DNA of 64,000 bases from contig JBKBXX010000002.1 in assembly GCA_046313915.1 (NCBI GenBank), positions 14,449 to 78,448 on the forward strand. The letters run 5' to 3'. The DNA comes from Burkholderiales bacterium (GTDB taxonomy: Bacteria; Pseudomonadota; Gammaproteobacteria; Burkholderiales; SG8-41). Below are positions 731 through 52,965 of the stretch, one piece after another. The position numbers were made by a program, and so were the translations under genes. The notes under the pieces were generated by a model. The model did no database searches, was not told where the DNA came from, and was given only the letters and a program-made list of their open reading frames with translations. Position 1 is the stretch's first letter, and every line of letters begins with the position of its first letter.

Positions 731-3460
731 ATGAAAACACTGCTGCTGGTCGACGGTTCGTCCTACCTTTATCGCGCGTTTCACGCGCTGCCCGATTTGC
801 GCAACAAGAAAAACGAGCCGACCGGCGCGATCTATGGCGTGCTCAACATGCTGCGCCGGCTGCACCAGGATGCGCCCGCCGATTATAGCGCCTGCGTTTT
901 CGATGCCAAAGGCAAGACTTTCCGCGAAGAGGTCTATCCCGACTACAAGGCCCACCGGCCGCCCATGCCCGACGATCTCGCCGCGCAGATCGCGCCGCTG
1001 CACGAAACCATCGTCGCAATGGGCTGGCCGCTGCTGATCGTCGAGGGTGTGGAAGCCGACGATGTCATCGGCACGCTTGCCCGCCAGGCCGAGCGCGAGG
1101 GCATGCGGGTGGTGATCTCGACCGGCGACAAGGATCTGGCGCAGCTCGTCAGCCCCGCCATTACGCTGGTCAACACCATGTCCGGCGAGACCCTGAACGA
1201 AGCCGGCGTCGAGCAGAAATTCGGCGTCAAGGCCGAGCGCATCATCGATTATCTGACGCTGATCGGCGACAGCGTCGACAACGTGCCGGGAGTGGCCAAG
1301 GTCGGCCCCAAGACCGCGGTGAAGTGGCTGTCGCAGTACGGCACGCTCGACAACGTGATGCGGCATGCTGCCGAGATCGGCGGCGTGGTCGGCGAGAACC
1401 TGCGCCGCGCGCTCGACTGGTTGCCCAAGGCGCGCGAGCTGCTCACCATCAGATGCGACGTCGCGCTGCCGGTGAAAATCGAGGATCTCGCGCCGCGGCC
1501 GCCGGACACGGCGAAGCTCGCCGAGCTGTTCGAGCGCTTCGAATTCAGGTCGTGGCAGCGCGAGCTGGAAGGGGCGGCGGCCAACCGGGCGCCGCCGCCA
1601 GCGGCTGACGGCGCCAGCGCAGACGGCGCGGTGCATGCGCTGCAACCCGCGCTTGAACGGCATTACGAAACCGTGCTGACCGAGCAGCAGCTCGATGCCT
1701 GGGTGAGCCGGATCGCCGCGGCCGATCTGGTCGCGGTCGACACCGAGACCACCAGCCTCGATCCGCTGCGCGCGCAACTGGTCGGCATTTCGCTCGCCGT
1801 CGCCGCCGGCGACGCCGCCTACATTCCGGTAGGGCATCGCTACGCCGGCGCGCCGCCGCAGCTCGCGCTCGAACGGGTGCTCGCCCGGCTCGGTCCGTGG
1901 CTGGAAGATGCCGCGCGGCCCAAGCTCGGCCAGCACCTCAAGTACGACATGCACGTCTTGGCCAACCACGGCGTGCGTCTGGCCGGCGCGCAGCACGACA
2001 CGCTGCTGCAGTCGTACGTGCTGGAAAGCCACAAGCCACACGACATGGACAGCCTGGCCTATAGACATTTATCAATAAAAACAATAACTTATGATGAAGT
2101 CACGGGCCGGGGCGCGAACCGCATCGGCTTCGAGCAGGTGGCGCTCGAGCGCGCCGCCGAGTACGCGGCCGAGGACGCCGATATCACGCTGCGGCTGCAC
2201 CAGGCGCTGTACCCGCAGATCGAGGCGAACGCCGGACTCACCTATATTTACCGCGAACTCGAAATGCCGGTGATGCGCGTGCTGCAGATCATGGAACGCC
2301 ACGGCGTGCTGCTCGACACGGCGCTGCTCGCGGAACTGTCGCGCGAATTCGGCGAGAAAATGTTGGCGCTCGAAGCGCGGGCGCACGCGCAGGCCGGCCA
2401 GCCTTTCAACCTCAATTCGCCCAGGCAGATCCAGGACATCCTGTTCGGGAAACACGGGCTGAAGCCGGTCAGGAAAACGCCTTCGGGCGCGCCTTCCACC
2501 GACGAGGATACGCTTGAGCAGCTCGCGCTCGATCATCCGCTGCCGCGATTGATCCTCGATTACCGCAGTCTCGCCAAGCTCAAATCGACTTACACCGACA
2601 AGCTGCCCGAGATGATCCATCCCGCGACCGGGCGCGTGCACACCAATTATGCGCAGGCGGTAGCGGTGACCGGGCGGCTCGCGAGCAACGATCCCAATCT
2701 GCAGAACATCCCGATCCGCACCGCTGAAGGCCGGCGCATCCGCGAGGCGTTCATCGCGCCGCCGGGGTGCCATCTCGTGTCGGCGGACTATTCGCAGATC
2801 GAACTCAGGATCATGGCGCACGTGTCGCAGGACGCGGGCCTGCTCAGGGCATTCGCCGCCGGCGAGGATATCCACCGCGCCACCGCAGCGGAAATTTTCG
2901 GCGTGGCGCCGCAAGTCGTGGACGCCGAGCAGCGGCGTTACGCCAAAGTGATCAACTTCGGTCTGATCTACGGCATGTCGTCGTTCGGGCTCGCGCGCGA
3001 GCTCGGGCTTGAGCGCGCTGCCGCCCAGCAGTACATGGACCGCTATTTTGCGCGCTATCCGGGAGTTGCCGAGTACATGCGCGCGACACGCGAAAAAGCG
3101 CGCGAGCAGGGCTACGTCGAAACCGTGTTCGGGCGCCGGCTGTGGCTGCCCGAAATCCGCGGCGGCAACGGCATGCGACGCCAGGCCGCCGAGCGCGCGG
3201 CGATCAACGCGCCGATGCAAGGCACTGCGGCCGACCTCATCAAGATGGCGATGATCGCGGTGCAGAAATGGATAGAGCGCGACGGACTCAAGACCCGGCT
3301 CATCATGCAGGTGCACGACGAGCTGGTGCTCGAAGTGCCCGACGCCGAGCTCGCCGCCGTGAAAGAGACTTTGCCGCGTCTCATGACCGGCGTGGCGAAG
3401 CTCGCGGTGCCGCTGGTGGTCGATGTCGGAGTGGGGCCGAACTGGGATAAAGCGCATTGA
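731..3460 (+). CDS. polA: DNA polymerase I
   Basis: 909-aa ORF with a 5'-nuclease N-terminus (LLLVDGSSYLYRAFHALP), a 3'-5' exo domain (VAVDTETTSLD) and polymerase motifs (DYSQIELR, QVHDELV). Confidence 0.98.
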   Translation: MKTLLLVDGSSYLYRAFHALPDLRNKKNEPTGAIYGVLNMLRRLHQDAPADYSACVFDAKGKTFREEVYPDYKAHRPPMPDDLAAQIAPLHETIVAMGWPLLIVEGVEADDVIGTLARQAEREGMRVVISTGDKDLAQLVSPAITLVNTMSGETLNEAGVEQKFGVKAERIIDYLTLIGDSVDNVPGVAKVGPKTAVKWLSQYGTLDNVMRHAAEIGGVVGENLRRALDWLPKARELLTIRCDVALPVKIEDLAPRPPDTAKLAELFERFEFRSWQRELEGAAANRAPPPAADGASADGAVHALQPALERHYETVLTEQQLDAWVSRIAAADLVAVDTETTSLDPLRAQLVGISLAVAAGDAAYIPVGHRYAGAPPQLALERVLARLGPWLEDAARPKLGQHLKYDMHVLANHGVRLAGAQHDTLLQSYVLESHKPHDMDSLAYRHLSIKTITYDEVTGRGANRIGFEQVALERAAEYAAEDADITLRLHQALYPQIEANAGLTYIYRELEMPVMRVLQIMERHGVLLDTALLAELSREFGEKMLALEARAHAQAGQPFNLNSPRQIQDILFGKHGLKPVRKTPSGAPSTDEDTLEQLALDHPLPRLILDYRSLAKLKSTYTDKLPEMIHPATGRVHTNYAQAVAVTGRLASNDPNLQNIPIRTAEGRRIREAFIAPPGCHLVSADYSQIELRIMAHVSQDAGLLRAFAAGEDIHRATAAEIFGVAPQVVDAEQRRYAKVINFGLIYGMSSFGLARELGLERAAAQQYMDRYFARYPGVAEYMRATREKAREQGYVETVFGRRLWLPEIRGGNGMRRQAAERAAINAPMQGTAADLIKMAMIAVQKWIERDGLKTRLIMQVHDELVLEVPDAELAAVKETLPRLMTGVAKLAVPLVVDVGVGPNWDKAH
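2060..2098 (+). other. AT-rich synonymous codon island inside polA carrying CAAT-N5-CAAT (2073-2085)
   Basis: tat aga cat tta tca ata aaa aca ata act tat gat gaa gives 13 consecutive A/T-ending codons. The flanking codons are GC-ending. Confidence 0.7.
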
Positions 3461-7341: not shown

Positions 7342-8238
7342 TCAGCGCTTGCCGCGCCGGCGCTCGATGCCCGCCATCGCGCCCAGCACTTCGCACACCG
7401 AGGCGGTGTCGCTCTGGCCGAGACCCCGCCCCATCGCCGCGCTGTATAGGGGTTCGCAGGCGCTGAACAGCGGCGTCGGGCAGTCGACCGAGCGTGCCAT
7501 TTCGCCGATCACCTGCATGTCTTTCTGCCACACTTCCACTTTCATGGTCGCGGGCCGGTAGCGGCCTTCGATCATGAGCTTGCCGCGCAGGCGGTAGACG
7601 CCATTGCCGATCACCGGGCTCGTGGCGAAGAGCTCCCATACCTGGCGCGGGTCGAGCCCCATTTTGCGCGCGAAAGTGAGCGCTTCGGCGGTGGCGACGT
7701 TGAGGATCGCCACCATGTGGTTGGCGGAGAATTTCATCCGGGTGCCGTTGCCGTAGGCGCCGACGTACGGCACCTTTTGGGTGAACACGCCGAGCACCGG
7801 CTGCGCGCGCTTGAACGCCGCGCGCGAGCCGCTGGCGAATATCGTCCACGCGCCTTCCTTCATGCGCACCGCGGTGCCACTGATCGGGCAGTCGAGTGTC
7901 GCGATGCCGGTGCGCCGGAGCGTGCGCCGTGCGCGATCCTTGGCGGCGAGCGGCAGCGTGCTGGTTTCGATGACGAGAAGCCCGGCGCGCCCGGCTTCGG
8001 CGATTTTTGCCACCGTGGCGGCGAGCGCCGCAGCGGTCGCGAGCGAGGTGATGACGATCTCAGCGCTCGCCGCCACCGCGGTGGCCGAGGCGAGCGGCTC
8101 GCCGCCCGCTTTCTTGAGCCGGCGGCAGGCCTCGGCGCGGATGTCGTAACCGGTGACGCGGTAACCGTGGGCGAGCAACGCCTCGGCCATCGCGCTGCCC
8201 ATGATGCCGAGGCCGACGATGCCGACGGCCGGTTTCAT
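7342..8238 (-). CDS. NAD(P)-dependent oxidoreductase, 3-hydroxyisobutyrate dehydrogenase / 6-phosphogluconate dehydrogenase-like family
   Basis: [32 protein letters not shown] Rossmann N-terminus. The ATG at 8238 overlaps the lipA stop (ATGA). Confidence 0.85.
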
Positions 8239-9182
8239 TTGAGCGCCATCACGCCGGCTTCGTGCGCCTGCTGGTCGGCGTGATAGCTCGAACGCACCAG
8301 CGGCCCGCATGCGGCGTGGCTGAAACCCATTTTTTGCGCTTCGTGCGCGAACCGGTCGAAGAGCGCCGGCTCGACGTAACGCAGCACCGGCAGGTGGTGC
8401 GCCGAAGGCTGCAGATACTGGCCAATCGTCAGCATGTCGACGTCGTGCGCGCGCAGGTCGCGCATCACTTCGAGGATTTCCCCGTCGGTTTCGCCCAGCC
8501 CCACCATCAGTCCCGACTTGGCGGGGAGGTGCGGGCAGCGCGCTTTAAAATTCTTCAATAATTTCAATGAGTTACTGTAGTCTGCACCCGGGCGCGCCTG
8601 TTTGTAGAGCCGCGGCACGGTTTCCAGATTGTGGTTCATGACGTCGGGCGGACACTCGGCGAGGATGTCGAGCGCGAGATCGAGCCGGCCGCGGAAATCG
8701 GGCACCAGCGCTTCGATACGCGTTGCCGGCGAAGCCTCGCGCACGGCGCGGATGCAGTCCCTGAAATGGCGCGCGCCGCCATCGCGCAGGTCGTCGCGGT
8801 CGACGCTGGTGATCACCACATACTTGAGCTTGAGCGCGGCAATGGTGTCGGCGAGCCGGACGGGTTCGGCGGCGTCGGGCGGCAGCGGCTTGCCGTGCGC
8901 GACGTCGCAGAACGGGCAGCGCCGCGTGCACAGGTCTCCGAGGATCATGAAAGTCGCGGTGCCTTTGCCGAAACACTCGCCGATGTTGGGGCAGGTTGCT
9001 TCCTCGCACACCGTATGCAGGCGGTGCTCGCGCAGGATGTCCTTGATTTCCTGGAAGCGCCGGCCGTCGCCGAGCCGCACGCGGATCCACTCCGGCTTCC
9101 TCAGCGGTTCGGCCGGCACCACCTTGATCGGGATGCGCGCCGTCTTGGCCGCGCCTTTCTGCTTTTCACCTGTCGCGCTCAT
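8235..9182 (-). CDS. lipA: Lipoyl synthase
   Basis: Radical-SAM and auxiliary cluster cysteines ([22 protein letters not shown]), C-terminal SSYHADQQA. Confidence 0.97.
8544..8576 (+). other. AT-rich synonymous codon island inside lipA; the motif reads on the plus strand (antisense to lipA), CAAT-N5-CAAT at 8556-8568
   Basis: Minus-strand codons agt aac tca ttg aaa tta ttg aag aat ttt aaa encode [11 protein letters not shown]. The plus strand reads TTTAAAATTCTTCAATAATTTCAATGAGTTACT. Confidence 0.7.
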
Positions 9183-9826
9183 GACAATGCTTTCAACAAA
9201 TATCGGGCGAGCTTGCCGGCGGCGAGCTCCGGTGGGTCGGCGATGCCGAGATCGCGCAACTGGGTCACTGCGAGCCCCGCGTAGCCGCAGGGGTCGATGG
9301 CGTAGAACGGCGCGAGGTCCATGTCGACGTTGAAGGCGAGTCCGTGATAGCAGCAGCCGTGCCTGATACGCAACCCGAGCGCTGCGATCTTGGCCTTGCC
9401 GACGTATACCCCCGGCGCTTCGACCCGGCCGTGTGCGGCGATGCCGTATTCGGCGAGCAAGTCTATCACGGCCTGTTCCATCAGCCTAACCAGCGGCCGC
9501 ACGCCGAGGCCGCGGCGCCGCATGTCGAGCAGCAGATAGATCACGACCTGTCCGGGGCCGTGGTAGGTGATCTGGCCGCCGCGATCGATTTTGACCACCG
9601 GGATGCCGTTGGCGATACGCGGCAGATGCTCGGGCCGGCCGGCGATGCCCTGGGTATAGACCGGCGGATGCTGCAGCACCCACAGCTCGTCGGCGGTGTC
9701 TGCGCCGCGCCGTGCCGTGAATTCCTGCATCGCGCGCCACGTCGATTCGTATTCGACCAGCCCGAGCCGGCGTAGCGCTGTCGCGGGACGGCCGGGCTCG
9801 GGAACGGACGGGGAGTCGGAATTCAT
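9179..9826 (-). CDS. lipB: Lipoyl(octanoyl) transferase
   Basis: [17 protein letters not shown]...[13 protein letters not shown]...[14 protein letters not shown]...CYHGLAFNV. Start taken at the internal ATG (MNSDSP). The stop overlaps the lipA start. Confidence 0.92.
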
Positions 9827-19177: not shown

Positions 19178-20593
19178 TCAGTTGGTTCTGGTGGCGCTGC
19201 GGCTTTTGAGAAACGCGATTGCCTGGTTGAGCTCGTAGTCGTTCTTGGAAACGACTTCGCCGGGCTCGGGCCTGAGCAGTTTCTCGTCGAGGTCTTTGGG
19301 CCGCGGCGCGGGCGTGAAGTCGAATTGCTTCGGCGCGGCGGCCGCGGTTTTGTCCGCTTCCTGCTTGTTGTCGGTCAGGTGCTTGGTGAGATCGGCTTCC
19401 TTGAGCTTGAGACCCGCGGTTTTGTCCGCGGTGCCGTCGTCGAGCACGATGTCGGGCGTGATGCCCTTCGCCTGGATCGAGCGGCCGTTGGGCGTGAAGT
19501 AGCGCGCCGTGGTGAGCTTGATCGCGGTGTTGTTGCCGAGCGGCAATATGGTCTGCACCGAGCCCTTGCCGAAAGTCTGCTGGCCCATCACCACCGCGCG
19601 TTTGTGGTCCTGCAGCGCGCCGGCGACGATTTCCGAGGCGGAAGCCGAGCCGCCGTTGACCAGCACCACCATCGGCACCGTGCGGCTTTCCGGCGGCAGT
19701 TTGCGGATGTAGTCTTCCTGGGCGCGGCCGCGCAGATAGTTTTCAGGCGTGGCGTGCAGCCGCATTTTCGAATCCTCGGTGCGGCCGTCGGTATAGACCA
19801 CCAGCGCATTGTGTGGCAGGAACGCGGCCGACACCGCGACCGCGCCGTTCAACAGGCCGCCGGGGTCGTTGCGCAGATCGAGCACGATGCCTTTCATCCG
19901 GCCCTGGTTCTGCCTGAACAGCGCGTCTATCGCTTTCGCCAGGGTCTCGCCGGTGTGTTCCTGGAACTGGCTCACGCGGAAATAGGCGTAACCCGGCTCG
20001 AGCAGCTTGGATTTGACGCTCTGGATCTTGATCACGGCGCGCGTCAGCGTGACGACGATCGGCTTGGGTTCGCCCTTGCGCACGATGGTGAGCGTGATTT
20101 GCGTGTTGGGTCTGCCGCGCATGCGTTTCACCGCGTCGTTCAGCGTCATGCCCTTGACCGAGGTCTCGTCGAGTTTGACGACGAGATCGCCCGGCTTGAG
20201 GCCGGCGCGCGCCGCCGGCGAATCGTCGATCGGCGACACGACCTTGACGAAACCGTCCTCCATGCCGACCTCAATGCCGAGTCCGCCGAATTCGCCCTGG
20301 GTGCCGACCTGCAGTTCCTTGAACGCTTCCTGGTCGAGATAGGCGGAATGCGGATCGAGGCCGGTCAGCATGCCGTTGATGGCTTCGGTGATGAGTTTCT
20401 TGTCCTCCACCGGCTCGACGTAGTCGTTTTTGACCCTGCCGAACACCTCGGTGAAGGTGCGCAGTTCCTCGATCGGCAAGGGCAGCGCGGTTTCTTTCTG
20501 CGCCACCGCGGAAAAGTTGAGGCTGATCGCAACCCCCATCAGCACGCCGATGGCGATCAATCCGAATTGTTGCAGTTTATTGCGTTTGCTCAT
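19178..20593 (-). CDS. Carboxy-terminal processing protease (S41 family, Ctp/Prc-like)
   Basis: N-terminal anchor, PDZ region (GGLGIEVGMEDGFVKVVSPIDDSPAARAGLKPGDLV) and catalytic region (VLVNGGSASASEIVAGALQD...GKGSVQ). Confidence 0.95.
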   Translation of the reverse strand: MSKRNKLQQFGLIAIGVLMGVAISLNFSAVAQKETALPLPIEELRTFTEVFGRVKNDYVEPVEDKKLITEAINGMLTGLDPHSAYLDQEAFKELQVGTQGEFGGLGIEVGMEDGFVKVVSPIDDSPAARAGLKPGDLVVKLDETSVKGMTLNDAVKRMRGRPNTQITLTIVRKGEPKPIVVTLTRAVIKIQSVKSKLLEPGYAYFRVSQFQEHTGETLAKAIDALFRQNQGRMKGIVLDLRNDPGGLLNGAVAVSAAFLPHNALVVYTDGRTEDSKMRLHATPENYLRGRAQEDYIRKLPPESRTVPMVVLVNGGSASASEIVAGALQDHKRAVVMGQQTFGKGSVQTILPLGNNTAIKLTTARYFTPNGRSIQAKGITPDIVLDDGTADKTAGLKLKEADLTKHLTDNKQEADKTAAAAPKQFDFTPAPRPKDLDEKLLRPEPGEVVSKNDYELNQAIAFLKSRSATRTN

Positions 20594-20633
20594 ACATACC
20601 CCAAAAACCCAAGTTAAATAAATGGGTTATTAA

Positions 20634-21857
20634 TTAGCTCCCGGTCCCGTCCGGGGTTTTCTGCCGTTCCATCCAGCCCAGCGGATCGAAAGGCCTGCCT
20701 TGATGGCGGATCTCGAAGTATAAACCCGAATCGCTGTTGCCGCCGCTGCTGCCTACCGCGGCTACGGTTTCGCCGCCGCGCACCGGATCGCCGACCCGCT
20801 TGTAGAGCGTCTCGTTGTTGCCGTAGAGGCTCAGGTAGCTGTCGCCGTGGTCGATGATCAGGAGATTGCCGAACCCCCTCAGCCAGTCGGCGAAAACCAC
20901 ACGGCCGGCGGCGATGGCGCGCACTTCCTCGCCGGCACGCGAGGCGATGAACAATCCTTTCCACGTCAAACCGCCGTCGGAACGTGGACTGCCGAAACGG
21001 TTGCCGAGTTCCCCCCGCACCGGCAGCCTCAGCTTGCCCTTGAGCTGCTGGAAAGGACTGTCGTCATTCGACCGGTCGGGCACGCTTTCGTTCCTGAGGC
21101 GGGGCGCGGAGGACGGACGGGAAGACGAGCGCGCGACGATTTTGCCGAGCTGCTCGACCAGGCGCGTGAGCCGGTTCTCGTCGCGTCTCAGGGTGTTGAT
21201 TTCGCGTTTCTGCTTCTGGATGTCGCGCGAAATCCTGGCCAGCACTTCGCTGCGCGCGCGTTTTTCCCGTTCCAGGCGCTGTTTCTGCGCGCTCTGCTCG
21301 GCGGCGATCGCCGCCAGTTCGGCGGTTTTTTGCTCGGTTTCCTCGGCCAGCTCCCGCAGTTGGGCGAGACGGGCGCGCAGGCCGCCGATCAGCTCGGCGC
21401 GGGCGCGTGCGATATGACCGAAATAATGCAGGCGGCGCGCAGTCTGGTTGGGATCGTCACCGTTCAGCAGCAGTCGCAACGGTTCCACCGCGCCGCCCAG
21501 GTATTGCCGGTAGAGCAGTCTCGCAAGCAATTCCTGCTGCGCCTTGGCGGCGGCTTCGTGCACGCGCGACGCCTCGCGCAGCTCGGCGAGCCGCTGGCGG
21601 GCGTCGCGCGCCTGCTGCGCGAGCTCGCGCAGCTTGCGGCTCGCGTCCGAGATCGCGCGTTCCGATTCCTTGAGCGCGTCGGCGGTCTCGCTCCTGATTT
21701 CCTCGGCGCCGGCGAGCCGTTGCTGCAGGGCTTCGATCCTGTCGCGCAGCTCGCGCAGGTCTTCGCGGGCGCGCGTCGCGGAAGGCGCAGCCGCCGCCAC
21801 GGCGACGCCGGTGGCGAGCAGCACGAAGAGCGCGATGGCGGGCAGGCCGCGGCTCAC
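20634..21857 (-). CDS. Murein hydrolase activator EnvC-like, coiled-coil plus M23 peptidase domain
   Basis: Long coiled coil ([18 protein letters not shown]...) and a C-terminal M23/LytM domain ([46 protein letters not shown]). Start taken at GTG 21857, which overlaps the gpmI stop (GTGA). The longer track ORF overlaps gpmI. Confidence 0.82.
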
Positions 21858-23398
21858 GTGAAGCTGAGCAGGGACCTGCCGGTCATCTCCGGCGGCTGCG
21901 GCAAGCCCATCATGGCGAGCAGGGTCGGCGCGATGTCCTGCAGCGCGCCGCGCCCGGCGATGCGCGCCGGCCGGCCGACGTACAGCAGCGGCACCAGGTT
22001 CAGCGTATGCGCGGTGTGCGGCTGGCGGGTCTCGGGATCGAGCATGGTCTCGGCGTTGCCGTGATCGGCGGTGATCAGCACTTCGCCGCCGCGCTCGCGC
22101 ATCGCGGCGACCGCCTTGCCCACGCACTCGTCGAGCACTTCGATGGCGCGGATCGCGGCGGCGAGATTGCCGGTATGGCCGACCATGTCGCCGTTGGCGT
22201 AGTTGCAGACGATGGCGTCGTATTTGCCGCTCTGGATGGCGGCGACCAGTTTGGCGGTGACTTCATGGGCGCTCATCTCGGGCTTGAGATCGTAGGTCGC
22301 GACCTTGGGCGAAGGCACCAGCACGCGATCCTCGCCGGGGTAGGGTGTTTCCACGCCGCCGTTGAAAAAATAGGTGACATGCGCATACTTCTCGGTTTCG
22401 GCGATGCGCAGCTGCTTCAGGCCGTGGCTTGCGAGGTATTCGCCGAAGCCGTTGCGGATGCTCTGGGGCGGAAACGCCGCCGGCAGATGCGCGAAATCCT
22501 CGCCGTAGCTGGTGAGCGTGCAGAAATAACCGAGTTCGGGCAGGCGGGCGCGCTCGAAACCGTCGAACGCGGCATCGGTCAACGCCCGCGTCAGTTGCCG
22601 TGCGCGGTCGGCGCGGAAATTCATGAACACCACGGCGTCGCCGTCGTTCATGCGCGCCGGCTGCCCGCCCGCCGGCACGATGGCGGTCGCCTTGACGAAC
22701 TCGTCGGATTCGCCGCGCGCGTAAGCGGCGTGCAGGCCTTCGAGCGCGGATTTTGCCGTGAACGCGGCGCGGCCTTCGACGAGCAGCCCGTAGGCCGGCG
22801 CCACGCGTTCCCAGCGCCGGTCGCGATCCATCGCGTAATAGCGGCCGCAGATCGAAACGATGCGGCCGGCGCCCAGCGCATCGCATTTCGTCTGCAGCGC
22901 GGCGAGCGAGGCTGCGGCGCTGCGGGGCGGGGTATCGCGCCCGTCGAGAAAGGCGTGCAGGCGGATGTCGGCGACGCCGTTGCGGGCGGCCATTTCGAGC
23001 ATCGCGTGGATCTGCGATTCATGGCTGTGCACGCCGCCGGGCGAGAGCAGTCCCAGAATGTGCAGCGCGCCGCCGCGCGCGACCTCCACCGCTTTGCCCA
23101 GCACCGGGTTTTGCAGGAACTCGCCGCTTTCGATCGCGTTCTCGATCTTGGTGTAGTCCTGGTAGATAACGCGGCCGGCGCCGATGTTCATGTGGCCGAC
23201 CTCGGAGTTGCCCATCTGGGCCGCGGGCAGCCCCACCCATTTTTCGGAAGCGTCGATGGTGGTATGGGGGCAGCTCTGCCACAGCGCATCCCAGTGCGGC
23301 TTGCGCGCGAGGCAGATCGCGTTGTGATCGCATTCCTCGCGATAGCCGAAACCGTCGAGTATGATCAGCAGCACCTTGTTCAACTTCATGTTTTTCAT
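21854..23398 (-). CDS. gpmI: 2,3-bisphosphoglycerate-independent phosphoglycerate mutase
   Basis: [13 protein letters not shown]...[13 protein letters not shown]...[14 protein letters not shown]...ITADHGNAE. Start taken at the internal ATG (MKNMKLNK). Confidence 0.96.
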
Positions 23399-23425
23399 GC
23401 ATTTCTCTTGGTGGTCGAGGTCATG

Positions 23426-23449
23426 TATAATTTCAGCATATTTTGAAAT
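23426..23449 (+). promoter_or_regulatory. Perfect TATAAT -10 hexamer overlapping an AT-rich inverted repeat (candidate ArsR-type operator) upstream of the ArsR-rhodanese-grxC genes
   Basis: TATAAT at 23426-23431. ATTTCA (23430-23435), N8, TGAAAT (23444-23449). It lies 36 nt upstream of ATG 23485. Confidence 0.4.
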
Positions 23450-23484
23450 GCGCCGGGCCCGCCCGGCAGGCACAGGAATACATT

Positions 23485-30758: not shown

Positions 30759-30788
30759 AAAAACCGGGCGCGGCTGCGCCCGCTTTTG
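30757..30788. terminator. Bidirectional rho-independent terminator between convergent pilin genes
   Basis: A7 run, CGGGCGC GGCT GCGCCCG stem-loop (30765-30782), then CTTTTG. The T7 run is on the minus-strand side. Confidence 0.65.
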
Positions 30789-30794
30789 CGCGGC

Positions 30795-31274
30795 TTACGA
30801 GCAGTCGCTGACCACCACGGTATAGGTGGGCGGGCTCGTCGAATCCAGCGCTTTTTTGTATCCCACTTCGCAAAGTTTTGGATCCTGCGCCTTGGAATGC
30901 TGGAAGGCGCCGTCGGGATAAGCGGTGTCGGCTCCGACGACGACGTCCGCCGTCAGATTCAGCGCTTTTGCGAGCTCGGTGGCGTTCTTGGCGTAGCCAT
31001 AGACCAGCTCTATGCTGGAGTTACCGGTGCCGTCGCCTTTGGGGTACGAGATGGTGGCGCCGGCGGACAGCGCCACGACGTTGGCGATCGACGCTTTGGC
31101 GAAAATCGAATCGTTGGCCTGTTTCATCGCGCCCGCCGTGCTCCGGATCACGCCGGCGCGTGCATCCGCGCCCAGGCTTACGAGCCGCGGCACTGCCACG
31201 GCGGCGAGGATGCCGACGATGGTGATGGTGACCACCAGCTCGGTCAGGGTAAAACCGGATTGTGTGGATTTCAT
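30795..31274 (-). CDS. Type IV pilin, class B paralog 1 (PilA-like, C-terminal disulfide loop ending ...VSDCS)
   Basis: MKSTQSGFTLTELVVTITIVGILAAVAVPRL... ; C-terminus KLCEVGYKKALDSTSPPTYTVVVSDCS. Start at the internal ATG 31274. Confidence 0.88.
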   Translation of the reverse strand: MKSTQSGFTLTELVVTITIVGILAAVAVPRLVSLGADARAGVIRSTAGAMKQANDSIFAKASIANVVALSAGATISYPKGDGTGNSSIELVYGYAKNATELAKALNLTADVVVGADTAYPDGAFQHSKAQDPKLCEVGYKKALDSTSPPTYTVVVSDCS

Positions 31275-31415
31275 GTGATCCCTCCGAACGAAAGCCGCCT
31301 GCTGCACCGAGGCGGCGCAGCAGGGGCGGAAAAACGGATTTTCGGCTTGACTGGTCATGTCCGGCAGCGCGCCGCCGCGCGACGGGCTGTGGCAGCGCGC
31401 CGCTTCATCGGCGGC

Positions 31416-31961
31416 TTACGAGCAGTCGCTGACGAGGATGAGGACCATGGGCACCGTGCTGGTGCTGGCCGCTTTCGTGTAGCCGGCCTCGCACTTGGAA
31501 GGATCCTGGGCTTTGGTATGCCGGATGGTGCCGTCGGGACCGATCAGGGTGGCTGCCGTGATACCGGTGTAACTCGAGTTATAGAGCAGCGCGGTGGCAC
31601 CGAGTGCGGAGTTGTCGACCGTGCCGACGGCGACGTCGGGGTGCGCGACCAGGGCCTTGTACAATTCCGCGGCGTTTGCGGCAAAGCCGTAGTGAATGTT
31701 GATGGTTTGTCCGCCGAGAGAGACAAAGGCATTCGCGTTGCCCGACGACAGATTCACGATGTTCAGGCTCGACGCCTTGGAAAAAATGGTGTCGTTGGCG
31801 TGTTTCATTGCGTCGGCCGTATTTTTGATCACCGATTCCCTCGCGTCCGTGCTCAGGTTGGCAAACCGCGGGATGGCGACCGCGGCGAGAACGCCGACGA
31901 TCGTGACGGTCGTGACCAGTTCCACCAGCGTAAAGCCGGTTTGCTGCTTGATCGTTTTCAT
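31416..31961 (-). CDS. Type IV pilin, class B paralog 2 (PilA-like, ending ...VSDCS)
   Basis: MKTIKQQTGFTLVELVTTVTIVGVLAAVAIPRF... ; C-terminus SKCEAGYTKAASTSTVPMVLILVSDCS. SD AAGGGGGG. Confidence 0.88.
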   Translation of the reverse strand: MKTIKQQTGFTLVELVTTVTIVGVLAAVAIPRFANLSTDARESVIKNTADAMKHANDTIFSKASSLNIVNLSSGNANAFVSLGGQTINIHYGFAANAAELYKALVAHPDVAVGTVDNSALGATALLYNSSYTGITAATLIGPDGTIRHTKAQDPSKCEAGYTKAASTSTVPMVLILVSDCS

Positions 31962-32073
31962 GTTGCACCCCCCTTAGGAAAGGGCCGCAGCCCTCGAAAG
32001 ACAGGGCCGCAACCCTGCCTACACTCCGCCTAATATACCTACGCTAGAGGGTCGATGCCGGTTTGTCAAATTT

Positions 32074-32089
32074 TGTGAAATTTTTCACG
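32074..32089. promoter_or_regulatory. CRP/Vfr-like palindrome upstream of pilin B2
   Basis: TGTGA AATTTT TCACG matches 9 of 10 positions of TGTGA-N6-TCACA. It lies 113-128 nt upstream of ATG 31961. A minus-strand TTGACA sits at 32069-32064. Confidence 0.35.
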
Positions 32090-32145
32090 GCAGGTGCTTC
32101 TTGCGAGATGGCGTCCGGGGGTCGCGCTCGCGGCGCTGCTCCGGC

Positions 32146-32715
32146 TCAGGGCGTCTTGAGCACCTCCAGATCTTTGACGTAGCAGTGCGCCGAAGCCGCT
32201 TGGACCCTGACCAACCCCATATCCAAGTCATTGATTTTCAACGTTTCTGAGGTTTTGACCACGCCCCAGTAGATCGCGCGGTTGACATCGAGGCGGGCGC
32301 CGCTCGCGGAACGGTGTTCACACGCGATGTCTATGCCCCGGACGTCGTGGGCGCCGTTGTTGGTCAGCACGACGTCTATCCGCATCGGCGTGCCGATGCC
32401 GCTGGGGCGCCAGCTGTAGTGAAAATCGATGTCGCGGATCGCTGCGGCGCGGGCTTGCACTGCCGGATCGGGCTCGCGCGGTGGCGGGGCAAACCACTCC
32501 ACGCTCCGGTAGCGGTGGTAAGTGATCGAGCCGGCCACGATCAACAAGACGCCGACCACCAGCGCGAGCTTCGACACGGGGCGCCTTATCCTTGCTCCGC
32601 ATTTCGGACAAACCGTGGTCTCGGCACTGACCTGCTGCCAGCAGCGTTTGCATCGGATATGCGCCAAATCGTTTTCTCTCGTTCCAGGGTGAGGGCGAGC
32701 CGTCCGCCGCCTCAT
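32146..32715 (-). CDS. Hypothetical zinc-ribbon / single-TM protein
   Basis: CKRCWQQVSAETTVCPKCG zinc ribbon, a TM segment (LALVVGVLLIVAGSI), then a roughly 120-aa extracytoplasmic domain. No family recognised. Confidence 0.5.
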   Translation of the reverse strand: MRRRTARPHPGTRENDLAHIRCKRCWQQVSAETTVCPKCGARIRRPVSKLALVVGVLLIVAGSITYHRYRSVEWFAPPPREPDPAVQARAAAIRDIDFHYSWRPSGIGTPMRIDVVLTNNGAHDVRGIDIACEHRSASGARLDVNRAIYWGVVKTSETLKINDLDMGLVRVQAASAHCYVKDLEVLKTP

Positions 32716-38748: not shown

Positions 38749-39292
38749 CGGCCAGCGGTCCATGATTTGCGATCCGGGAAAGCCGCCGCATCGCGCTTCG
38801 CACGGCTTCAGCCTGCCCACCGCGATTTTCCTGCTGGTGGTGCTGTGGCTGCTGGGCGCGTTCGTGATTTCGATCACCGGCACGCAGCGCGGTGCGCTCG
38901 TGATGGACGTGCGGGGCGCGCGCGCCTACCAGGCGGCGCGCGCCGGCATCGAGTGGGCGGCCTACCACGTGCTCGATCCCAACAACGATTTGCAGGACAA
39001 CAGCCCGCCCGTCAATTTGCTGGCGCCGTGTCCCGGCGCTGCGGGAAGCTCGCCCAGCACCACGACGTTGCCCGCGCTGGCGGGTTCGCTTGCAGATTTC
39101 ACGGTGACGGTGGCCTGCACCGCGACCGACGCGACCGAGGCCAACCGCGTGATCCGGGTGTTCAGGATCACGGCGACTGCCGCCAGCGGCGCGCCGGGCA
39201 CTGCGGATTACATCGAGCGCAAGCTCGAAGCGGTGCTGAGCAAATGCAAGAATCCGGCGGCGCCGGCGCCGCGCTTCGCGTGCGGTGGTTGA
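38729..39292 (+). CDS. Pilin-like assembly protein (MshP-like position)
   Basis: HGFSLPTAIFLLVVLWLLGAFVISITGTQRGALVMDVRGARAYQAARAGIEWAAYHV. The start could be ATG 38762. Confidence 0.6.
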   Translation: MSTTRPSGQRSMICDPGKPPHRASHGFSLPTAIFLLVVLWLLGAFVISITGTQRGALVMDVRGARAYQAARAGIEWAAYHVLDPNNDLQDNSPPVNLLAPCPGAAGSSPSTTTLPALAGSLADFTVTVACTATDATEANRVIRVFRITATAASGAPGTADYIERKLEAVLSKCKNPAAPAPRFACGG

Positions 39293-39296
39293 AGCC

Positions 39297-42200
39297 ATGG
39301 GAAAGCAGATCATGCGATTGAAGTTTTTGGCCACGGTGATCTTGCTGGGCACCTGGTTCGCCACGAGCAGCGCGGCGCTGGCGCTCACCTGTGCGTCGCA
39401 AACCAGCGGCAACTGGAACGTCGCCGCGACCTGGAGCTGCGGGGCGGTGCCGGGCGCCGCCGACGACGTGCAGATCCGCAACGGCAACAGCGTGACGATA
39501 CCGGCCGGTTACGCCGCCGCCGCCAACAGCGTGACTTTCCTCGCCACCAACGGTTCGGCGCGGCTCATCCATGACACCGGCACCAGCACGCTTGCGGTAG
39601 GCGCGGGCGGCGTCACCATCAACGCGCCGACCAACAACCAAATTAATTCGTGGGATGTTTTCGACGGCAGCGCCACGGTCAACGGCGCGGTGACGCTGGT
39701 CGGCGGCAGCACCAACAATCGCGTCGCGCGCATCCGGGTCTCGGCCGGCACCCTCGACATCAACGGCAATCTTACCCTGGATGCCGCTGCCGCGCCGCGC
39801 GCGCTGCTCGCGGTTACCGGTGCGGGCAACGTGCTGCTTGCCGGAAATTTTACCCTTACCAGCGGCCAGGGCACGCTGACGATGGCGGCCGGCAGCACTT
39901 TCACGTACAGATCAGCCGGCACGGCGACGGTGGCGACCGGAGCCAACATCGCGTACCGCAATCTCGTGATCAACAAACCGGGCGGTACCGCGACCGCCGC
40001 CGCCGCGCCTGCGCCGCCGCGCAGTCTCACCGTAGCCGGCAGTCTGACGGTGCAGGCGGGGGTGTTCGATGTCGCCAGCACCAACACCGCAGTCAGCGGC
40101 AACACCAGTCTCAGCGGCGAGCTGCTGCTCAGCTCGGCGACGGGTTCCAAGACTTTCACGGGAAGCGTGACCATCAACGCCGTGACTGGCAGATGGAACA
40201 ACATCGGCAACGCCGCCGTGACCATGGGCGGCGATCTCGTCAACAACAATTCGACACTGACGCCGGCGTTCGTGTCGGGTAGCGGCAACTATACCTTCGT
40301 CAATGCCACCTACGTGTGGGCTAGCGTCAACGGTCTCACTTTTTCCGGCAACGTTTTCGTCAATGGCAGGCGCACCAACACCACTACTACCACGATCGCC
40401 GGCAATCTCGCCGGCAGCGCGCGGCTCGACAACGGTGCCAATCAGACCCTCAACATCGGTGGCAATGCCAACGGCATTGCCACGCTCGACGCCTCGGCGA
40501 ACGGCAATATCGTCAACTACAACGGCAGTGCGGCGCAAATCGCGGAAAACACCACTTATTATCACCTGCGGATCAACAACACGGTCGGCCCGGTGACGCT
40601 GGCGGGTGCCATCACCGTGCTCGGCGATCTGACCAACAACGGCAATTTCGATCCGGCCGCGGGCAGCTGGCGGGTGACTTTCGGCGGCAGCGTGACGCAG
40701 AACCTGCTCGGCACGGCGGCGACCGGTTTCTACGACGTGACGCTCGACAACCCGGCCGGACTGGTGCTGGCGCAGGACATGAACGTCGCCCACAACCTCA
40801 CATTGCAAAATGGCGTGCTCACCACCGGCAGCCATATCCTTTTCATCAGCAATCCCTCGCCCACGGGCTCGAACATCAACGCCAATGCGAGCAAGTTCAT
40901 CGTCGGCAACCTGAAGAAGGCGATTCCCGCTGGCAGCAACATCAGCCGCAATTTCGAGGTCGGCACGGTGAGCGGCGGGCTGCGCTACGTGCCGGTCAGC
41001 GCCACCTTCGCCTCGGTGAGCATTGCCGGCGCGCTCACCGTTGCGACCGGCGTACCCGACCATCCTGCGATCGCTTCGTCCGACATCGACGAGAATCTGA
41101 GTGTCAACCGCTACTGGACTTTCACCAATGGCGGCACGGTGTTTACCAGCTACAGCGCGACGCTGACTTTCATCAACCCCGCCGATCTCGACTCCGGCAC
41201 CGATCCGCTGGTGTTCATCGCCCAGCGCTACAGTCCGCCGCATCCTGCCGCGGGCACGTGGAGCGATGTCGCGGTGAGCACTGCCACGGCCAGCATCACC
41301 ATGAGCGGCGTGACCGGTTTCGGCGATTTCGCGGTCGGTACGCGGCGCGGCGGCACGCCCGGCATCGGCCGTTTCAACGCGTACGAAACCAGCACCCCTC
41401 CCGGTGCGACCACCGGAGTGATCAGGACCAAGGTCGCCGGCCAGACTTTCCAGCTCGATATCGTCGCCATCAATCTTGCGGGCAACGCGATCCAGACCAA
41501 CTACACCGATACCACCCGCATCGAGGTGCTGAACGCGAGTGATAACAGCGGCGCGCTGGATGCCAACGCGTGCCGTCCGAGCTGGAGCGTGATCCAGACG
41601 CTGCCCAACGTCGATTTCATCAGCAAGGACAACGGCCGCAAAACCGTCAGCATCACCGAAAACAACGCGTGGCCGGTGGTTCGCCTGCGCATGTCCAACC
41701 TTTCCGGCTCGCGCGTCGGCTGCTCGACCGACGCATTTGCGATCCGGCCCGCCACTTTGGCGAATCTTGCCGCGAGCGACAACAACAATTGGGAGACCGC
41801 GGGAACCGCCCGCGTGCTGGGTGAGGTGACCTTCGGCACGGTGATGCACAAGGCGGGACGGCCTTTCAGCGTGCGTGCGACGGCGCAAAACGCCGCTGGC
41901 GGCACGACCACCAACTATGCCGGCGCCCCGGTCGTCGTCCTGAGCGTCTGCGGTGGCGCCGCCTGCACGCCGAGCTTCGGCAGCCTCGCGCTGAACACCG
42001 CGTTCGTCGCAGGAGAGCTGGTTGCCGACACCGCGAGCTATAGCGAAGTCGGCGCCTTCGGCCTGCAGCTCGTCGACGATGCGTTCGCCGCCATCGACAA
42101 CGCCGACGGCTCGACGCTCGGCGAAAGACGCGTTGCGTCTGCCACGGTCAATGTCGGGCGTTTTGTGCCCGACCATTTTGCGGTGGCGCTCAACACGCCC

Positions 42201-43187
42201 CAGTTTGCGACCGCCTGCGCGGCGGGCAATTTCACTTACGTCGGCCAGCGCTTCGCTTACACGGTCCAGCCGGTGATCACGGTGGAGGCGCGCAGTCTCG
42301 GCGGCAGCGCGACCGCGCTCTACCGCGGCAACTGGTGGCGCCTCACCAATGCGACTCTCAGCGGCAAGGCGTATACGGCGGCGAGCGGCACGGTGAATAC
42401 GGCCGATGTTCCCGCCACCGATCCGGTGATCCGCTATAACGGCGACGGCCTGCCCAATCCGCCGCCGCTCAACCCCGGCCAAGGCACGCTCACCTTCAGC
42501 TCGGGCACCGCTCTCGGTTCGGGCCTGTTTTTCACGCGTACTGTGCCCGTGGCGCCTTTCGACGCCGAGATCCGCCTCGCGATCAACGTTGCCGACGCCG
42601 ACGGCGTGGTCTATGAGTTTCCGCCCGGAACGCCCGCCAACCCGGTGGGCTTCGGCCAGGCGAGCGCCGGCAACGGCATCGCTTTTGCCAATGGCAAAAA
42701 CATGCGCTTCGGGCGCCTGCGGCTGGTCAATGCGAGCGGCTCCAACCTGCTGCCGCTCACGCTGCGCATGGAGGCGCAGCACTGGGTCGCGCCCGGCTAT
42801 TTCGTGACCAACGTCGACGACGGCTGCACGGCGGTTGCGGCGGCCAGCGTCGCGCTGGGCAATTTCCAGGGCCTGACGAACGGTGACACTACGCCGACGA
42901 TTACGTCCGAGCCTTTTGCGAACGGCGTCAAGCTCATCAGGCTTTCGGCGCCCGGCGGCACCAAGACCGGCAGCGTCGATGTCGTGGTCAACCTCAACGC
43001 GACTGCAGGTGCGCTTGCTGCCTGCCCGCCATTTGCCACCTCGTCCACTCCCACCGCAGCCAACCTCGCTTTCCTGCGCGGCAACTGGTGCGGCGGCTAC
43101 GACAACGATCCCAAGGCGAGGGCGCGTTTCGGCGTCTATCGCGGCAGCGAAGAGGTTATCGACATCAGGGAAAATTTCTTAAATTAA
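39297..43187 (+). CDS. Giant MshQ-like pilus-associated protein (about 1300 aa) with a repetitive Gly/Asn/Thr-rich N-terminal half
   Basis: Signal peptide MRLKFLATVILLGTWFATSSAALA. It is the last gene of the minor-pilin operon, as mshQ is in MSHA loci. Start is ATG 39297 or 39312. Confidence 0.72.
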   Translation: MGKQIMRLKFLATVILLGTWFATSSAALALTCASQTSGNWNVAATWSCGAVPGAADDVQIRNGNSVTIPAGYAAAANSVTFLATNGSARLIHDTGTSTLAVGAGGVTINAPTNNQINSWDVFDGSATVNGAVTLVGGSTNNRVARIRVSAGTLDINGNLTLDAAAAPRALLAVTGAGNVLLAGNFTLTSGQGTLTMAAGSTFTYRSAGTATVATGANIAYRNLVINKPGGTATAAAAPAPPRSLTVAGSLTVQAGVFDVASTNTAVSGNTSLSGELLLSSATGSKTFTGSVTINAVTGRWNNIGNAAVTMGGDLVNNNSTLTPAFVSGSGNYTFVNATYVWASVNGLTFSGNVFVNGRRTNTTTTTIAGNLAGSARLDNGANQTLNIGGNANGIATLDASANGNIVNYNGSAAQIAENTTYYHLRINNTVGPVTLAGAITVLGDLTNNGNFDPAAGSWRVTFGGSVTQNLLGTAATGFYDVTLDNPAGLVLAQDMNVAHNLTLQNGVLTTGSHILFISNPSPTGSNINANASKFIVGNLKKAIPAGSNISRNFEVGTVSGGLRYVPVSATFASVSIAGALTVATGVPDHPAIASSDIDENLSVNRYWTFTNGGTVFTSYSATLTFINPADLDSGTDPLVFIAQRYSPPHPAAGTWSDVAVSTATASITMSGVTGFGDFAVGTRRGGTPGIGRFNAYETSTPPGATTGVIRTKVAGQTFQLDIVAINLAGNAIQTNYTDTTRIEVLNASDNSGALDANACRPSWSVIQTLPNVDFISKDNGRKTVSITENNAWPVVRLRMSNLSGSRVGCSTDAFAIRPATLANLAASDNNNWETAGTARVLGEVTFGTVMHKAGRPFSVRATAQNAAGGTTTNYAGAPVVVLSVCGGAACTPSFGSLALNTAFVAGELVADTASYSEVGAFGLQLVDDAFAAIDNADGSTLGERRVASATVNVGRFVPDHFAVALNTPQFATACAAGNFTYVGQRFAYTVQPVITVEARSLGGSATALYRGNWWRLTNATLSGKAYTAASGTVNTADVPATDPVIRYNGDGLPNPPPLNPGQGTLTFSSGTALGSGLFFTRTVPVAPFDAEIRLAINVADADGVVYEFPPGTPANPVGFGQASAGNGIAFANGKNMRFGRLRLVNASGSNLLPLTLRMEAQHWVAPGYFVTNVDDGCTAVAAASVALGNFQGLTNGDTTPTITSEPFANGVKLIRLSAPGGTKTGSVDVVVNLNATAGALAACPPFATSSTPTAANLAFLRGNWCGGYDNDPKARARFGVYRGSEEVIDIRENFLN

Positions 43188-51810: not shown

Positions 51811-52965
51811 ATGTCCTTTTCCGCCCTCGTGGCAGAACTCGCCGAACTCGAAGCACGCGGCCTCGGGCGCCGCCGGCGCGTGCTGCAAGGTCCGCAGACG
51901 GCGCAGGTGACGGTCGACGGCCGGCGATATCTCGCATTCTGCAGCAATGACTATCTGGGACTCGCGGCGCATCCGCGGCTGGTGCGCGCCGCCCAGGAAG
52001 GCGCTGCGCGCTACGGTATCGGCGCCGGCGCTTCGCACCTGATTCTCGGCCACGGCGCAGCGCATCACGCGCTCGAGGCAGCGCTCGCCGCCTTCGTCGG
52101 TCTGCCGCGTGCGCTGCTGTTTTCCACCGGCTATATGGCCAATCTCGGCATCGTGACCGCACTCACCGGGCGCGGTGACGCCGTGTTCGCCGACAAGCTC
52201 AATCACGCTTCGCTCAACGACGCGGCGCTGCTGTCGCGTGCCCACTTCAAGCGTTATCCGCATCTCGATCTGGATGCGCTGGGAAAACTGCTCTCGACCA
52301 CGCGCGCGCGGCGCAAGCTGGTGGTGACCGACGCCGTATTCAGCATGGACGGCGATATCGCCCCGTTGCCCGAACTGCTGGCGCTGTGCGAGCGCCACGA
52401 TGCCTGGCTCGTGCTCGATGATGCGCACGGTTTCGGCGTACTGGGCACGGGCGGGCGCGGCGTCCTGTCGCATTTCGACATCACCGCGCCGCCGCGCGTG
52501 ATCTATATGGCGACGCTCGGCAAGGCGGCTGGCGTATCCGGCGCTTTCGTCGCGGGCGGCGAGGCCGTGACGGAAATGCTGATCCAGCGCGCCCGCAGCT
52601 ATGTCTATACCACGGCCATGCCGCCGCTGCTCGCGCATACGTTGCTCGAAAGTCTCGCCCTGATCGAGCACGAACAGTGGCGACGCGACCGTCTGCACAA
52701 TTTAATTATTCAATTAAAACAATCAGTTACTGGTGTGCGCTGGAAATTGCTGCCTTCGGAGACCGCGATCCAGCCGCTTGTCGTCGGCGGCAACGCCGAA
52801 GCCGTGGCGGTGGCGGAGCGGCTGGCACAGCGCGGGCTGCTGGTGCCGGCGATCCGGCCGCCGACGGTGCCGCAAGGCAGCGCACGCTTGCGCATTTCGC
52901 TGTCGGCCGCGCACAGCGCAGACGATGTCGCGCGGCTGGCTGCGGCGCTGCGTGAATCGCAATGA
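51811..52965 (+). CDS. bioF: 8-amino-7-oxononanoate synthase
   Basis: [10 protein letters not shown]...DKLNHASL...[12 protein letters not shown]...[13 protein letters not shown]...[12 protein letters not shown]. Confidence 0.95.
52699..52734 (+). other. AT-rich synonymous codon island inside bioF carrying CAAT-N5-CAAT (52711-52723)
   Basis: aat tta att att caa tta aaa caa tca gtt act ggt gives 12 consecutive A/T-ending codons. Confidence 0.7.

Follow-up and report, generated by a model that had tools for sequence, protein, structure and literature searches.

IHF, a heterodimer of the DNABII family, introduces a DNA bend of more than 160 degrees, and its sites act beside phage attP cores and the 3′ ends of tRNA genes. 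The canonical IHF site is 34 bp long and contains four elements: a WATCAA that starts near the centre, a TTR that lies 4 bp 3′ of WATCAA, two base pairs, mostly AA, that are 9 bp apart and form the points of proline intercalation, and a tract of four to six A in the 5′ half (PMC1874591). In E. coli, IHF sites are also carried by the RIB/RIP repeats, BIME-1 elements whose L linker contains the site and which are found at the 3′ ends of transcription units (Boccard & Prentki 1993, as cited in PMC3333891). Another class of dispersed sequence is represented by the uptake signals of naturally competent bacteria. The USS occurs as 1,471 cores in 1.83 Mb, or about one per 1.2 kb, and uptake sequences are reported to favour genome-maintenance genes and to have a 30-bp extended motif (PMC2817400).

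Here we describe four AT-rich islands in a 64-kb stretch of DNA (the window) from a Burkholderiales bacterium, whose GC content is about 65%. We put the probability at roughly two in three that these islands are selected IHF-type architectural sites, predicted to be of high affinity and to belong to a dispersed family of about 35 bp. This assignment of a binding protein draws on the sequence of the element and on the contexts in which it is found.

An AT island in lipA and related copies in the window

The lipA gene occupies ORF 8235..9182 on the minus strand. Its product contains the Pfam domains Radical_SAM and LIAS_N, and its stop codon overlaps the start of the next gene (ATGA). A reading of this DNA made from the sequence only had described an AT island within lipA at 8544-8576, and our analysis confirms this island. 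The plus strand, antisense to lipA, reads TTTAAAATTCTTCAATAATTTCAATGAGTTACTG at these positions. The corresponding lipA codons are AGT AAC TCA TTG AAA TTA TTG AAG AAT TTT AAA, of which 4/11 end in G or C, compared to a gene-wide GC3 of 0.83 (P = 7e-4). The island had also been placed between the PGADY motif and a second motif with no intervening gap, and the alignment to orthologues is indeed ungapped here. Scored with a weight matrix for the element, the lipA copy extends over 8544-8582 (+) and reaches 44.9 bits.

The same reading had pointed out a resemblance to a second island in bioF, which we recovered on the plus strand at 52709-52732. The reported identity of 19 of 24 positions between the two islands is correct and has a binomial P of about 6e-6. 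As a control, we compared pairs of AT-rich 24-mers drawn from both strands of the rest of the window. None of the 951,468 control pairs reached 19 identities (the maximum was 18), and the similarity is thus not typical of random AT-rich pairs.

A scan for AT islands followed by the weight matrix identified exactly four copies in the 64-kb window, all on the plus strand, and the window scan contained no sites of intermediate score besides these four. The copies are the most AT-rich 30-mers of the window and its sole sites with 25 A/T per 30 bases. Two of them had not been noted before. The first, at 2061-2099 (+), is the best in the window at 61.4 bits and lies in the sense orientation within polA (731..3460, plus strand; DNA_pol_A at 1e-161, plus both exonuclease domains), where the codons AGA CAT TTA TCA ATA AAA ACA ATA ACT TAT encode RHLSIKTITY. 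The second, at 43167-43205 (+), is weaker and degenerate with a score of 19.8 bits. It retains the CAA-N4-TTA core and an AT-rich 5′ half, but its first TCAAT has A in place of C. This copy spans the stop codon (43185-43187) of a DUF6701 gene, with a PilM_2-like gene downstream of it. It adjoins a type IV/MSHA-like pilus cluster.

The full bioF copy, also in the sense orientation, extends over 52698-52737 (+) and scores 49.0 bits. Its host gene (51811..52965, plus strand) is part of a bioB-bioF-hydrolase-methyltransferase run. None of the loci retrieved for comparison carries a bioF orthologue. A 68-nt GC-rich spacer adjoins bioF, so a lack of intergenic room cannot account for every coding copy. 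A weaker CAAT-N5-CAAC that had been suggested at 9185-9197 scores -38.8 bits on the weight matrix of the element and is not a copy.

A dispersed element with a lineage-restricted distribution

A genome collection was scanned once with a degenerate pattern, ATTNWTCAATWAWWWCAATNASTTAY; three of the four window copies match it, those in lipA (8550-8575) and bioF (52705-52730) among them. The pattern was found at no fewer than 119 loci. By our own calculation, it is expected in GC-rich DNA at about 3e-15 per position, as against three matches in 64 kb. The matches listed come mostly from uncultured Betaproteobacteria/Burkholderiales MAGs of 55-66% GC, with several per genome as a lower bound; in LNDW01, copies were located on at least 12 contigs.

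Alignment of 68 non-orthologous copies from among the matches listed revealed a sharply delimited element at positions -4..+32 that is set in ordinary GC-rich flanks, and there was no conservation outside -6..+32 in these copies. The consensus reads AAAA, followed by ATT W W TCAAT A A A A W CAAT W A S TTA Y and about six A/T, or in short AAAA-ATTWWTCAATAAAAWCAATWASTTAY and about six A/T, for a total of about 35 bp. Many of the consensus positions are fixed by the search pattern itself; support that is free of this bias is provided by the four window copies, the flanks and the weaker copies, as well as by L122, a locus that was chosen via lipA and not via the motif. The weaker copies that lie in the same loci outside the pattern keep the 3′ part, ATCAA-N4-TTAC, and their 5′ part is generic AT-rich sequence. 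The element lacks symmetry, has C and G at fixed positions and is not palindromic.

Related loci contain about one extra copy per 18-30 kb, and a rough estimate for the density in certain GC-rich Betaproteobacteria is one copy per 15-30 kb. The 527 kb surrounding 80 lipA orthologues that were picked blind to the motif contained one strong copy. High abundance is therefore a property of some lineages only. A search of the E. coli genome with the consensus returned weak matches only (E >= 0.3), all in accessory DNA. In Polynucleobacter, the motif lies within a heat-shock promoter region, where it keeps a fixed distance of 15 nt to a CIRCE operator.

Architecture of the element and the canonical IHF site

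The element, with an extent of about 34-37 bp, possesses a counterpart to each of the four parts of the canonical IHF site. A W-W-CAA is located at +13..+17 of the element, which spans -4..+32, and corresponds to 8563-8567 in the lipA copy; a perfect WATCAA, with T at +14, is present in 23/68 copies and WAACAA in 45/68. A TTA follows at +22..+24, exactly 4 bp past the CAA, in all four window copies (8572-8574 in lipA) and is kept in most of the weaker copies outside the pattern. AA steps occur at +7/+8 (within TCAAT) and +16/+17 (within CAAT), 9 bp apart, which in lipA are 8557-8558 and 8566-8567. The 9-bp repeat CAAT-N5-CAAT is exactly at the spacing of the predicted IHF kinks. Finally, A is found at positions -4..-1 in 42, 37, 47 and 55 of the 68 copies, respectively, followed by ATT, and these positions lay outside the search pattern; the A-tract as a whole occupies -4..0. 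In the lipA copy, the A/T tract is at 8547-8552 and the A-tract is TTTAAAATT. The weaker copies, with their conserved 3′ core and loose AT-rich 5′ half, display the pattern of known IHF sites as well.

The generic IHF core, WATCAANNNNTTR, is not enriched, either in the window (one observed, 0.4 expected) or in motif-poor relatives (four observed, 1.6 expected). The element is therefore a specific extended form, and its assignment to IHF rests on the architecture of its consensus. An isolated generic core, AATCAATGACTTG, is present on the minus strand at 32224..32236, inside ORF 32146..32715. It comprises the 3′ half only, falls below the matrix threshold and is possibly a partial site at most.

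Copies in att-type contexts

The pattern was also found at 48 loci in viral contigs. In nine of these contigs it comes directly after ...GTCAGGCTCATAACCTGAAGGTCGTAGGTTCAAATCCTACCCCCGCAACCA, the anticodon-loop-to-CCA part of tRNA-Met. This stretch matches annotated tRNA-Met genes, and the whole tRNA is absent from those viral contigs. In one of them (L202), the tRNA-Met fragment is flanked on both sides by GTGGCTAAC repeats and a tyrosine integrase is encoded 0.8 kb away. This is the arrangement of a textbook attP, in which the element sits beside the core with its A-tract side facing it, in the position and orientation of H′ in lambda attP. The tRNA-Met fragment was the only match when a phage database was searched with the L202 attP region.

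Elsewhere, the pattern adjoins an Arm-DNA-binding ORF and a terminase in a Rhodanobacter phage-like contig (L077), and in three alphaproteobacterial loci (L068, L106 and L117) a complete tRNA gene has a copy 1-9 nt away from its 3′ end. A further candidate for a tRNA-fragment context (L101) was rejected as an ordinary kup/tctC spacer. Among the GC-rich chromosomal loci that were checked, 1/60 had a copy adjacent to a tRNA, which argues that the dispersed copies are stand-alone sites and not att remnants.

These contexts bear on whether the element could be the site of another sequence-specific protein, be it a lineage-specific nucleoid-associated or regulatory protein or one with H-NS-like nucleation, so that the resemblance to IHF would be partial or coincidental. 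Several observations count against IHF and would fit such a protein: the 5′ half is tighter than IHF requires, the generic core lacks enrichment, and the abundance of the element is lineage-restricted, which is not predicted by a universal architectural need. In addition, the fixed distance from the CIRCE operator in Polynucleobacter is a regulator-like placement. However, AA steps 9 bp apart, CAA-N4-TTA, a 5′ A-tract and a length of about 35 bp are all in the IHF register, and an asymmetric motif with fixed C and G is unlike both the AT preference of H-NS and the palindromic sites of regulators. Furthermore, the att arms of Alpha-, Beta- and Gammaproteobacteria and of phages use the same pattern, suggesting that the protein is a widely conserved one. 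We consider another protein to be unlikely and favor IHF.

Genomic placement, strand and polarity

Using a simple GC3-based gene caller, 18/83 copies among the matches listed were called coding and the remainder were intergenic or unclear, with an intergenic share of about 80%. In tandem spacers, the element is located near or overlapping the upstream stop codon, at a median of about 8 nt. Intergenic copies numbered 28, 4 and 12 in tandem, convergent and divergent spacers, compared to 23.7, 8.7 and 11.6 expected once spacer length is taken into account, which is not a significant difference (P = 0.19). An enrichment between convergent genes that had appeared with a crude ORF classification was gone with a better gene caller. 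Relative to genes, 17 copies are in the opposite and 11 in the same orientation. The coding hosts that we found are polA and bioF, which carry the element in sense, and lipA and dnaE, which carry it in antisense (dnaE in four MAGs). Because the element is independent of strand and reading frame, and because the majority of copies are intergenic, the constraint must lie on the DNA.

The sequence-only reading had proposed a DNA-level, chromosome-oriented element, and the first half of this proposal is borne out by the placement above. The second half would imply a polar element that is co-oriented with replication, of the KOPS, Chi or Ter type, and the window seems to suggest as much, given that its four copies are on the plus strand and that the cumulative GC skew is positive over most of its length. 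Yet the two-sided probability of four out of four is 0.125. Across 75 copies from GC-rich loci of related genomes, the motif agreed with positive local GC skew in 36 cases and with negative in 39; skew measured over 8 kb is itself an imprecise indicator of the direction of replication. A test of polarity that does not depend on skew is offered by adjacent copies within one 8-kb locus, since these must share a replichore. Such neighbors were in the same orientation 11 times and in opposite orientations 9 times at >=30 bits, and 16:16 at >=20 bits, which speaks against a fixed chromosome strand. The motif is also long, AT-rich and sparse, unlike KOPS or Chi. Taken together, a polar element is highly improbable. 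The earlier proposal had been made to depend on enrichment and on an orientation preference; the former is present and the latter is absent.

Some features of the element recall a signal at the level of the transcript or promoter, whether a promoter (internal or antisense), a terminator, an RNA element or a pause at rare codons. Its AT-richness and A-tract are reminiscent of an UP element with hexamers, start codons follow some copies (TTATG), and in Polynucleobacter the copy occupies a heat-shock promoter region. Nevertheless, scans for sigma-70 promoters and intrinsic terminators were empty at the lipA copy and at the weaker fourth copy, the best-conserved bases of the element fall in what would be the promoter spacer, and the -10-like positions are only 41-46% conserved. 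No fold was better than that of shuffled sequences for the four copies on both strands (z -1.9 to +1.1), and Rfam at the gathering threshold had no matches in the window. The coding copies do create clusters of rare codons, but the codons differ between the sense and antisense copies, and a rare-codon pause was rejected on these grounds. The element, sense in polA and bioF and antisense in lipA and dnaE, also has no consistent orientation to genes, and we regard this class of explanation as very improbable.

The placement of the copies is also relevant to a DNA uptake signal of naturally competent Betaproteobacteria, which would accumulate through uptake bias and recombination. The element is non-palindromic, lies in both orientations and is found in coding as well as intergenic sequence. 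Orthologous positions are shared between genomes, polA and dnaE are among the hosts, and the fourth window copy is next to the pilus cluster. The density is difficult to reconcile with this idea, as four copies in 64 kb, or about one per 15-30 kb, is 10-15 times sparser than USS. The element is also without the dominant 9-12 bp core of an uptake signal, its conservation running over about 30 bp instead, and it is about 80% intergenic whereas 35-65% of USS/DUS are inside ORFs. Moreover, an identical pattern in phage attP arms and in unrelated taxa would be unexpected for a species-specific tag. An uptake signal is thus quite improbable.

Gain and retention of the lipA and polA copies

The lipA orthologues that were selected blind to the motif allow the history of the lipA copy to be read. 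Their consensus at the island is GCG CAC TCG CTG AAG CTG CTG AAG GAC TTC AAG, which encodes AHSLKLLKDFK. Aligning lipA across relatives, as the sequence-only reading had advised, shows the island to be a clustered recoding: relative to the consensus of 79 orthologues, the window gene is changed at 14/33 nt, of which 13 are from G/C to A/T. Seven of the changes are at third positions, and there are three amino-acid replacements (A to S, H to N and D to N). The copy is absent from 77-79 motif-blind orthologues (72-84% amino-acid identity), all of which have GC-rich codons there, and is shared only with L070, a syntenic relative whose LipA is 89% identical. Between these two genes, 8/9 island codons at conserved residues are identical, compared to 70% in the rest of the gene. 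Because the copy is missing from the motif-blind orthologues and present only in L070, it is evidently a recent gain.

In contrast to lipA, the polA copy has a longer record. It is present in L122 and in eight MAGs that were selected by the pattern, whereas L127, L131 and L151 lack it and have CTT GGC GTG AAG ACG ATT ACC, or LGVKTIT, in its place. Motif-bearing polA reads TTA TCA ATA AAA ACA ATT ACT, or LSIKTIT, such that building of the motif led to the replacements G to S and V to I. When the window gene is compared to that of L122, the island is identical at 35/39 nt while nucleotide identity across the gene is 73% and third positions at conserved residues match in 57% of cases; within the island, the same rare codon is used at 10/11 conserved residues (P = 0.02, a conservative value). 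In a neighbor-joining tree computed with the island masked, the motif-bearing polA genes all fall in one clade. The data fit a single old gain of the polA copy, with retention since then by what would be purifying selection on the DNA.

The local composition of the islands is sharply unlike that of the host genes, as could be expected of the footprint of a mobile element or a horizontally transferred patch. However, 79 LipA and 12 PolA orthologues align across the island with no gap and with the orthology of the protein maintained, neither conserved flanks nor palindromes are present, and the same motif recurs in unrelated genes. We therefore rejected a mobile insertion or transferred patch on the ungapped alignments. 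Chance is confronted with a lipA/bioF similarity above that of all control pairs, and the probability of any of these three origins is close to nil. Instead, the comparison indicates that selection acts on the DNA, as evidenced by 13/14 changes from G/C to A/T in lipA, and by the amino-acid replacements in polA and an island preserved at 35/39 across 73% nucleotide identity.

Discussion

If the islands are IHF-type sites, their conspicuous composition has a simple explanation. A site this rich in A/T would almost never arise by chance in a genome of 65% GC, so that favored sites would have to be built by selection and would stand out as AT islands. Most copies are accommodated in short intergenic spacers, often over a stop codon, and those within genes are written in through synonymous and conservative codon changes. 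The payoff is likely to be architectural, in the form of sharp local bending and the organisation of the nucleoid and of supercoil domains, as opposed to regulation of lipA.

A further step would be to postulate a few hundred "super-consensus" IHF anchor sites per genome that form a lineage-specific system of chromosome architecture, for example as fixed sharp bends or as supercoil-domain barriers that resemble bacterial insulators. Selection on such a system would need to be strong enough to overwrite codons and amino acids in essential genes, of which polA, dnaE, lipA and bioF are examples, and to preserve such copies for as long as a clade has existed. We offer this as a tentative idea and find it doubtful at present. 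Our literature search on the motif strings and on IHF ChIP in Betaproteobacteria or GC-rich genomes found no precedent, and we found no published description of the stand-alone family or of its coding copies.

Should binding by IHF hold true, the element would offer an unusually clear example from nature of direct selection on the site of a nucleoid protein. The 65% GC background makes it possible to read both gain (lipA, recent) and retention (polA, as old as its clade) of the AT islands from sequence. It would also follow that where the chromosome is sharply bent can be important enough to place a constraint on essential proteins, and the copies would provide a ready list of sites with which to address the disputed architectural role of specific IHF sites. 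For the annotation of GC-rich MAGs, such islands should not be read as polar signals of replication, as artefacts of assembly or as evidence of horizontal transfer.

Comparison with known systems places the element at varying distances from each. It differs from REP/MITE mobile repeats in that it is not palindromic and in that its coding copies are ungapped substitutions, not insertions. With KOPS, Chi and Ter it shares the nature of a DNA-level signal that is independent of gene orientation. However, it has no detected polarity, is an AT-rich sequence of 35 bp as opposed to a G-rich 8-mer, and is not confined to one region, with matches on many contigs of one MAG. The USS of Pasteurellaceae and the DUS of Neisseriaceae are similarly lineage-specific, non-palindromic, present in both orientations and found in polA and dnaE, and they too are written into coding regions at a cost in codons and amino acids. 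In contrast, the element is 10-15 times sparser, has no short core, is mostly intergenic and is also located in phage att arms.

The canonical IHF site resembles the element in extent, in the central W-A-T/A-CAA, in the TTR (here TTA) 4 bp on, in the AA steps, in the 5′ A-tract and in asymmetry. The likeness extends to H′ of lambda attP in that the pattern in L202 lies beside an attP core together with arm-type repeats and an integrase. Three differences are apparent. The 5′ half of the element, TCAATAAAA, is far tighter than the E. coli consensus; at position 3 of the core, A replaces the canonical T in most copies, among them the three coding copies of the window; and the element forms a dispersed, near-identical multi-copy family with some members inside essential genes.

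As a dispersed family, the element appears to have its closest analogue in the RIB/RIP repeats of E. coli. Unlike these, its 68 aligned copies are without flanking inverted REP palindromes, and it has no significant hairpins. A preference for 3′ ends or convergent spacers was not significant after correction for spacer length, and in tandem spacers the copies are close to the upstream stop codon. RIBs are extragenic as far as the cited account describes them, whereas coding sequence harbors about 20% of the copies of the element. What the two would have in common, again within the scope of that account, are IHF or IHF-type sites that are repeated and dispersed over the chromosome, that may occupy short spacers after genes and that have no evident link to the regulation of a particular gene.

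The element within genes and its surroundings in the window

Two replication genes, polA and dnaE, are among those that carry a copy of the element, a candidate IHF-type site, inside their reading frame. In dnaE, which encodes DNA polymerase III alpha, an antisense copy occupies one and the same position in each of four MAGs (L028, L052, L065 and L079; L numbers denote loci from other genomes or viral contigs, most of them found by scanning for the element pattern). Intergenic room is absent in the lipB-lipA-dehydrogenase run of the window because the lipA stop codon and the start of the next gene overlap as ATGA (8235-8238). In contrast, bioB and bioF are separated by a GC-rich spacer of 68 nt (51743-51810), and the bioF copy nevertheless lies within the gene.

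The weaker fourth copy of the window is located in a region (39285-44244) with the gene for a 1300-aa DUF6701 protein on one side and a PilM_2-like gene on the other, an arrangement suggestive of an MSHA/type IV pilus-like cluster. A further AT-rich block nearby (43222-43280) includes TTGACA, although the promoter scan reported no sigma-70-type promoter there.

Other AT-rich islands and an isolated IHF core

The intergenic AT island at 32054-32095, flanked by ORFs 30786..32033 (plus strand) and 32146..32715 (minus strand), contains TGTGAAATTTTTCACG (about 32074-32089), a near-perfect CRP/FNR-type palindrome of the form TGTGA-N6-TCACG. This island bears no relation to the element family. Inside the second of these ORFs, at 32224-32236 on the minus strand, lies AATCAATGACTTG, the only exact match in the window to the generic IHF core WATCAANNNNTTR; it is similar to the 3' half of the element and lacks the 5' half. 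AT-rich islands outside the family also occur at 20565-20645 and 23373-23455, the latter with TATAAT and the inverted repeat ATTTCA...TGAAAT, which possibly mark a promoter or operator.

The element beside CIRCE operators and putative attachment sites

In L005 and L057 (both SAR86-type, 35% GC) and in L001 and L058, the 3' half of some copies continues as a palindrome such as CAATAACTTACAAAGTTATTG or TTCAATAA...TTATTGAA; no such extension was seen in the window copies. In eight Polynucleobacter genomes of about 45% GC (L009, L012, L024, L027, L046, L062, L089 and L096), a perfect CIRCE (HrcA) operator, TTAGCACTC-N9-GAGTGCTAA, lies downstream of the motif at a distance fixed at 15 nt, except in L046 (26 nt). 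The placement of the motif is conserved, within a heat-shock promoter region.

In each of three GC-rich Alphaproteobacteria, the single copy and the 3' end of a whole tRNA gene are 1-9 nt apart: Micropepsaceae (tRNA-Lys, L068 468-570), Bradyrhizobium (tRNA-Leu, L106 85-201) and Chelatococcus (tRNA-Ser, L117 1101-1224). These sites look like integrated-element junctions. A complete attP-like module is found in L202 (3200-4300, minus strand) and the related viral contigs L204, L215, L218, L222, L223, L224, L232 and L237. Its core is a tRNA-Met 3' fragment with at least six arm-type repeats, GTGGCTAAC, distributed on both sides; the element adjoins this core and is followed by a hairpin and T-run, and a tyrosine integrase is encoded 0.8 kb away.
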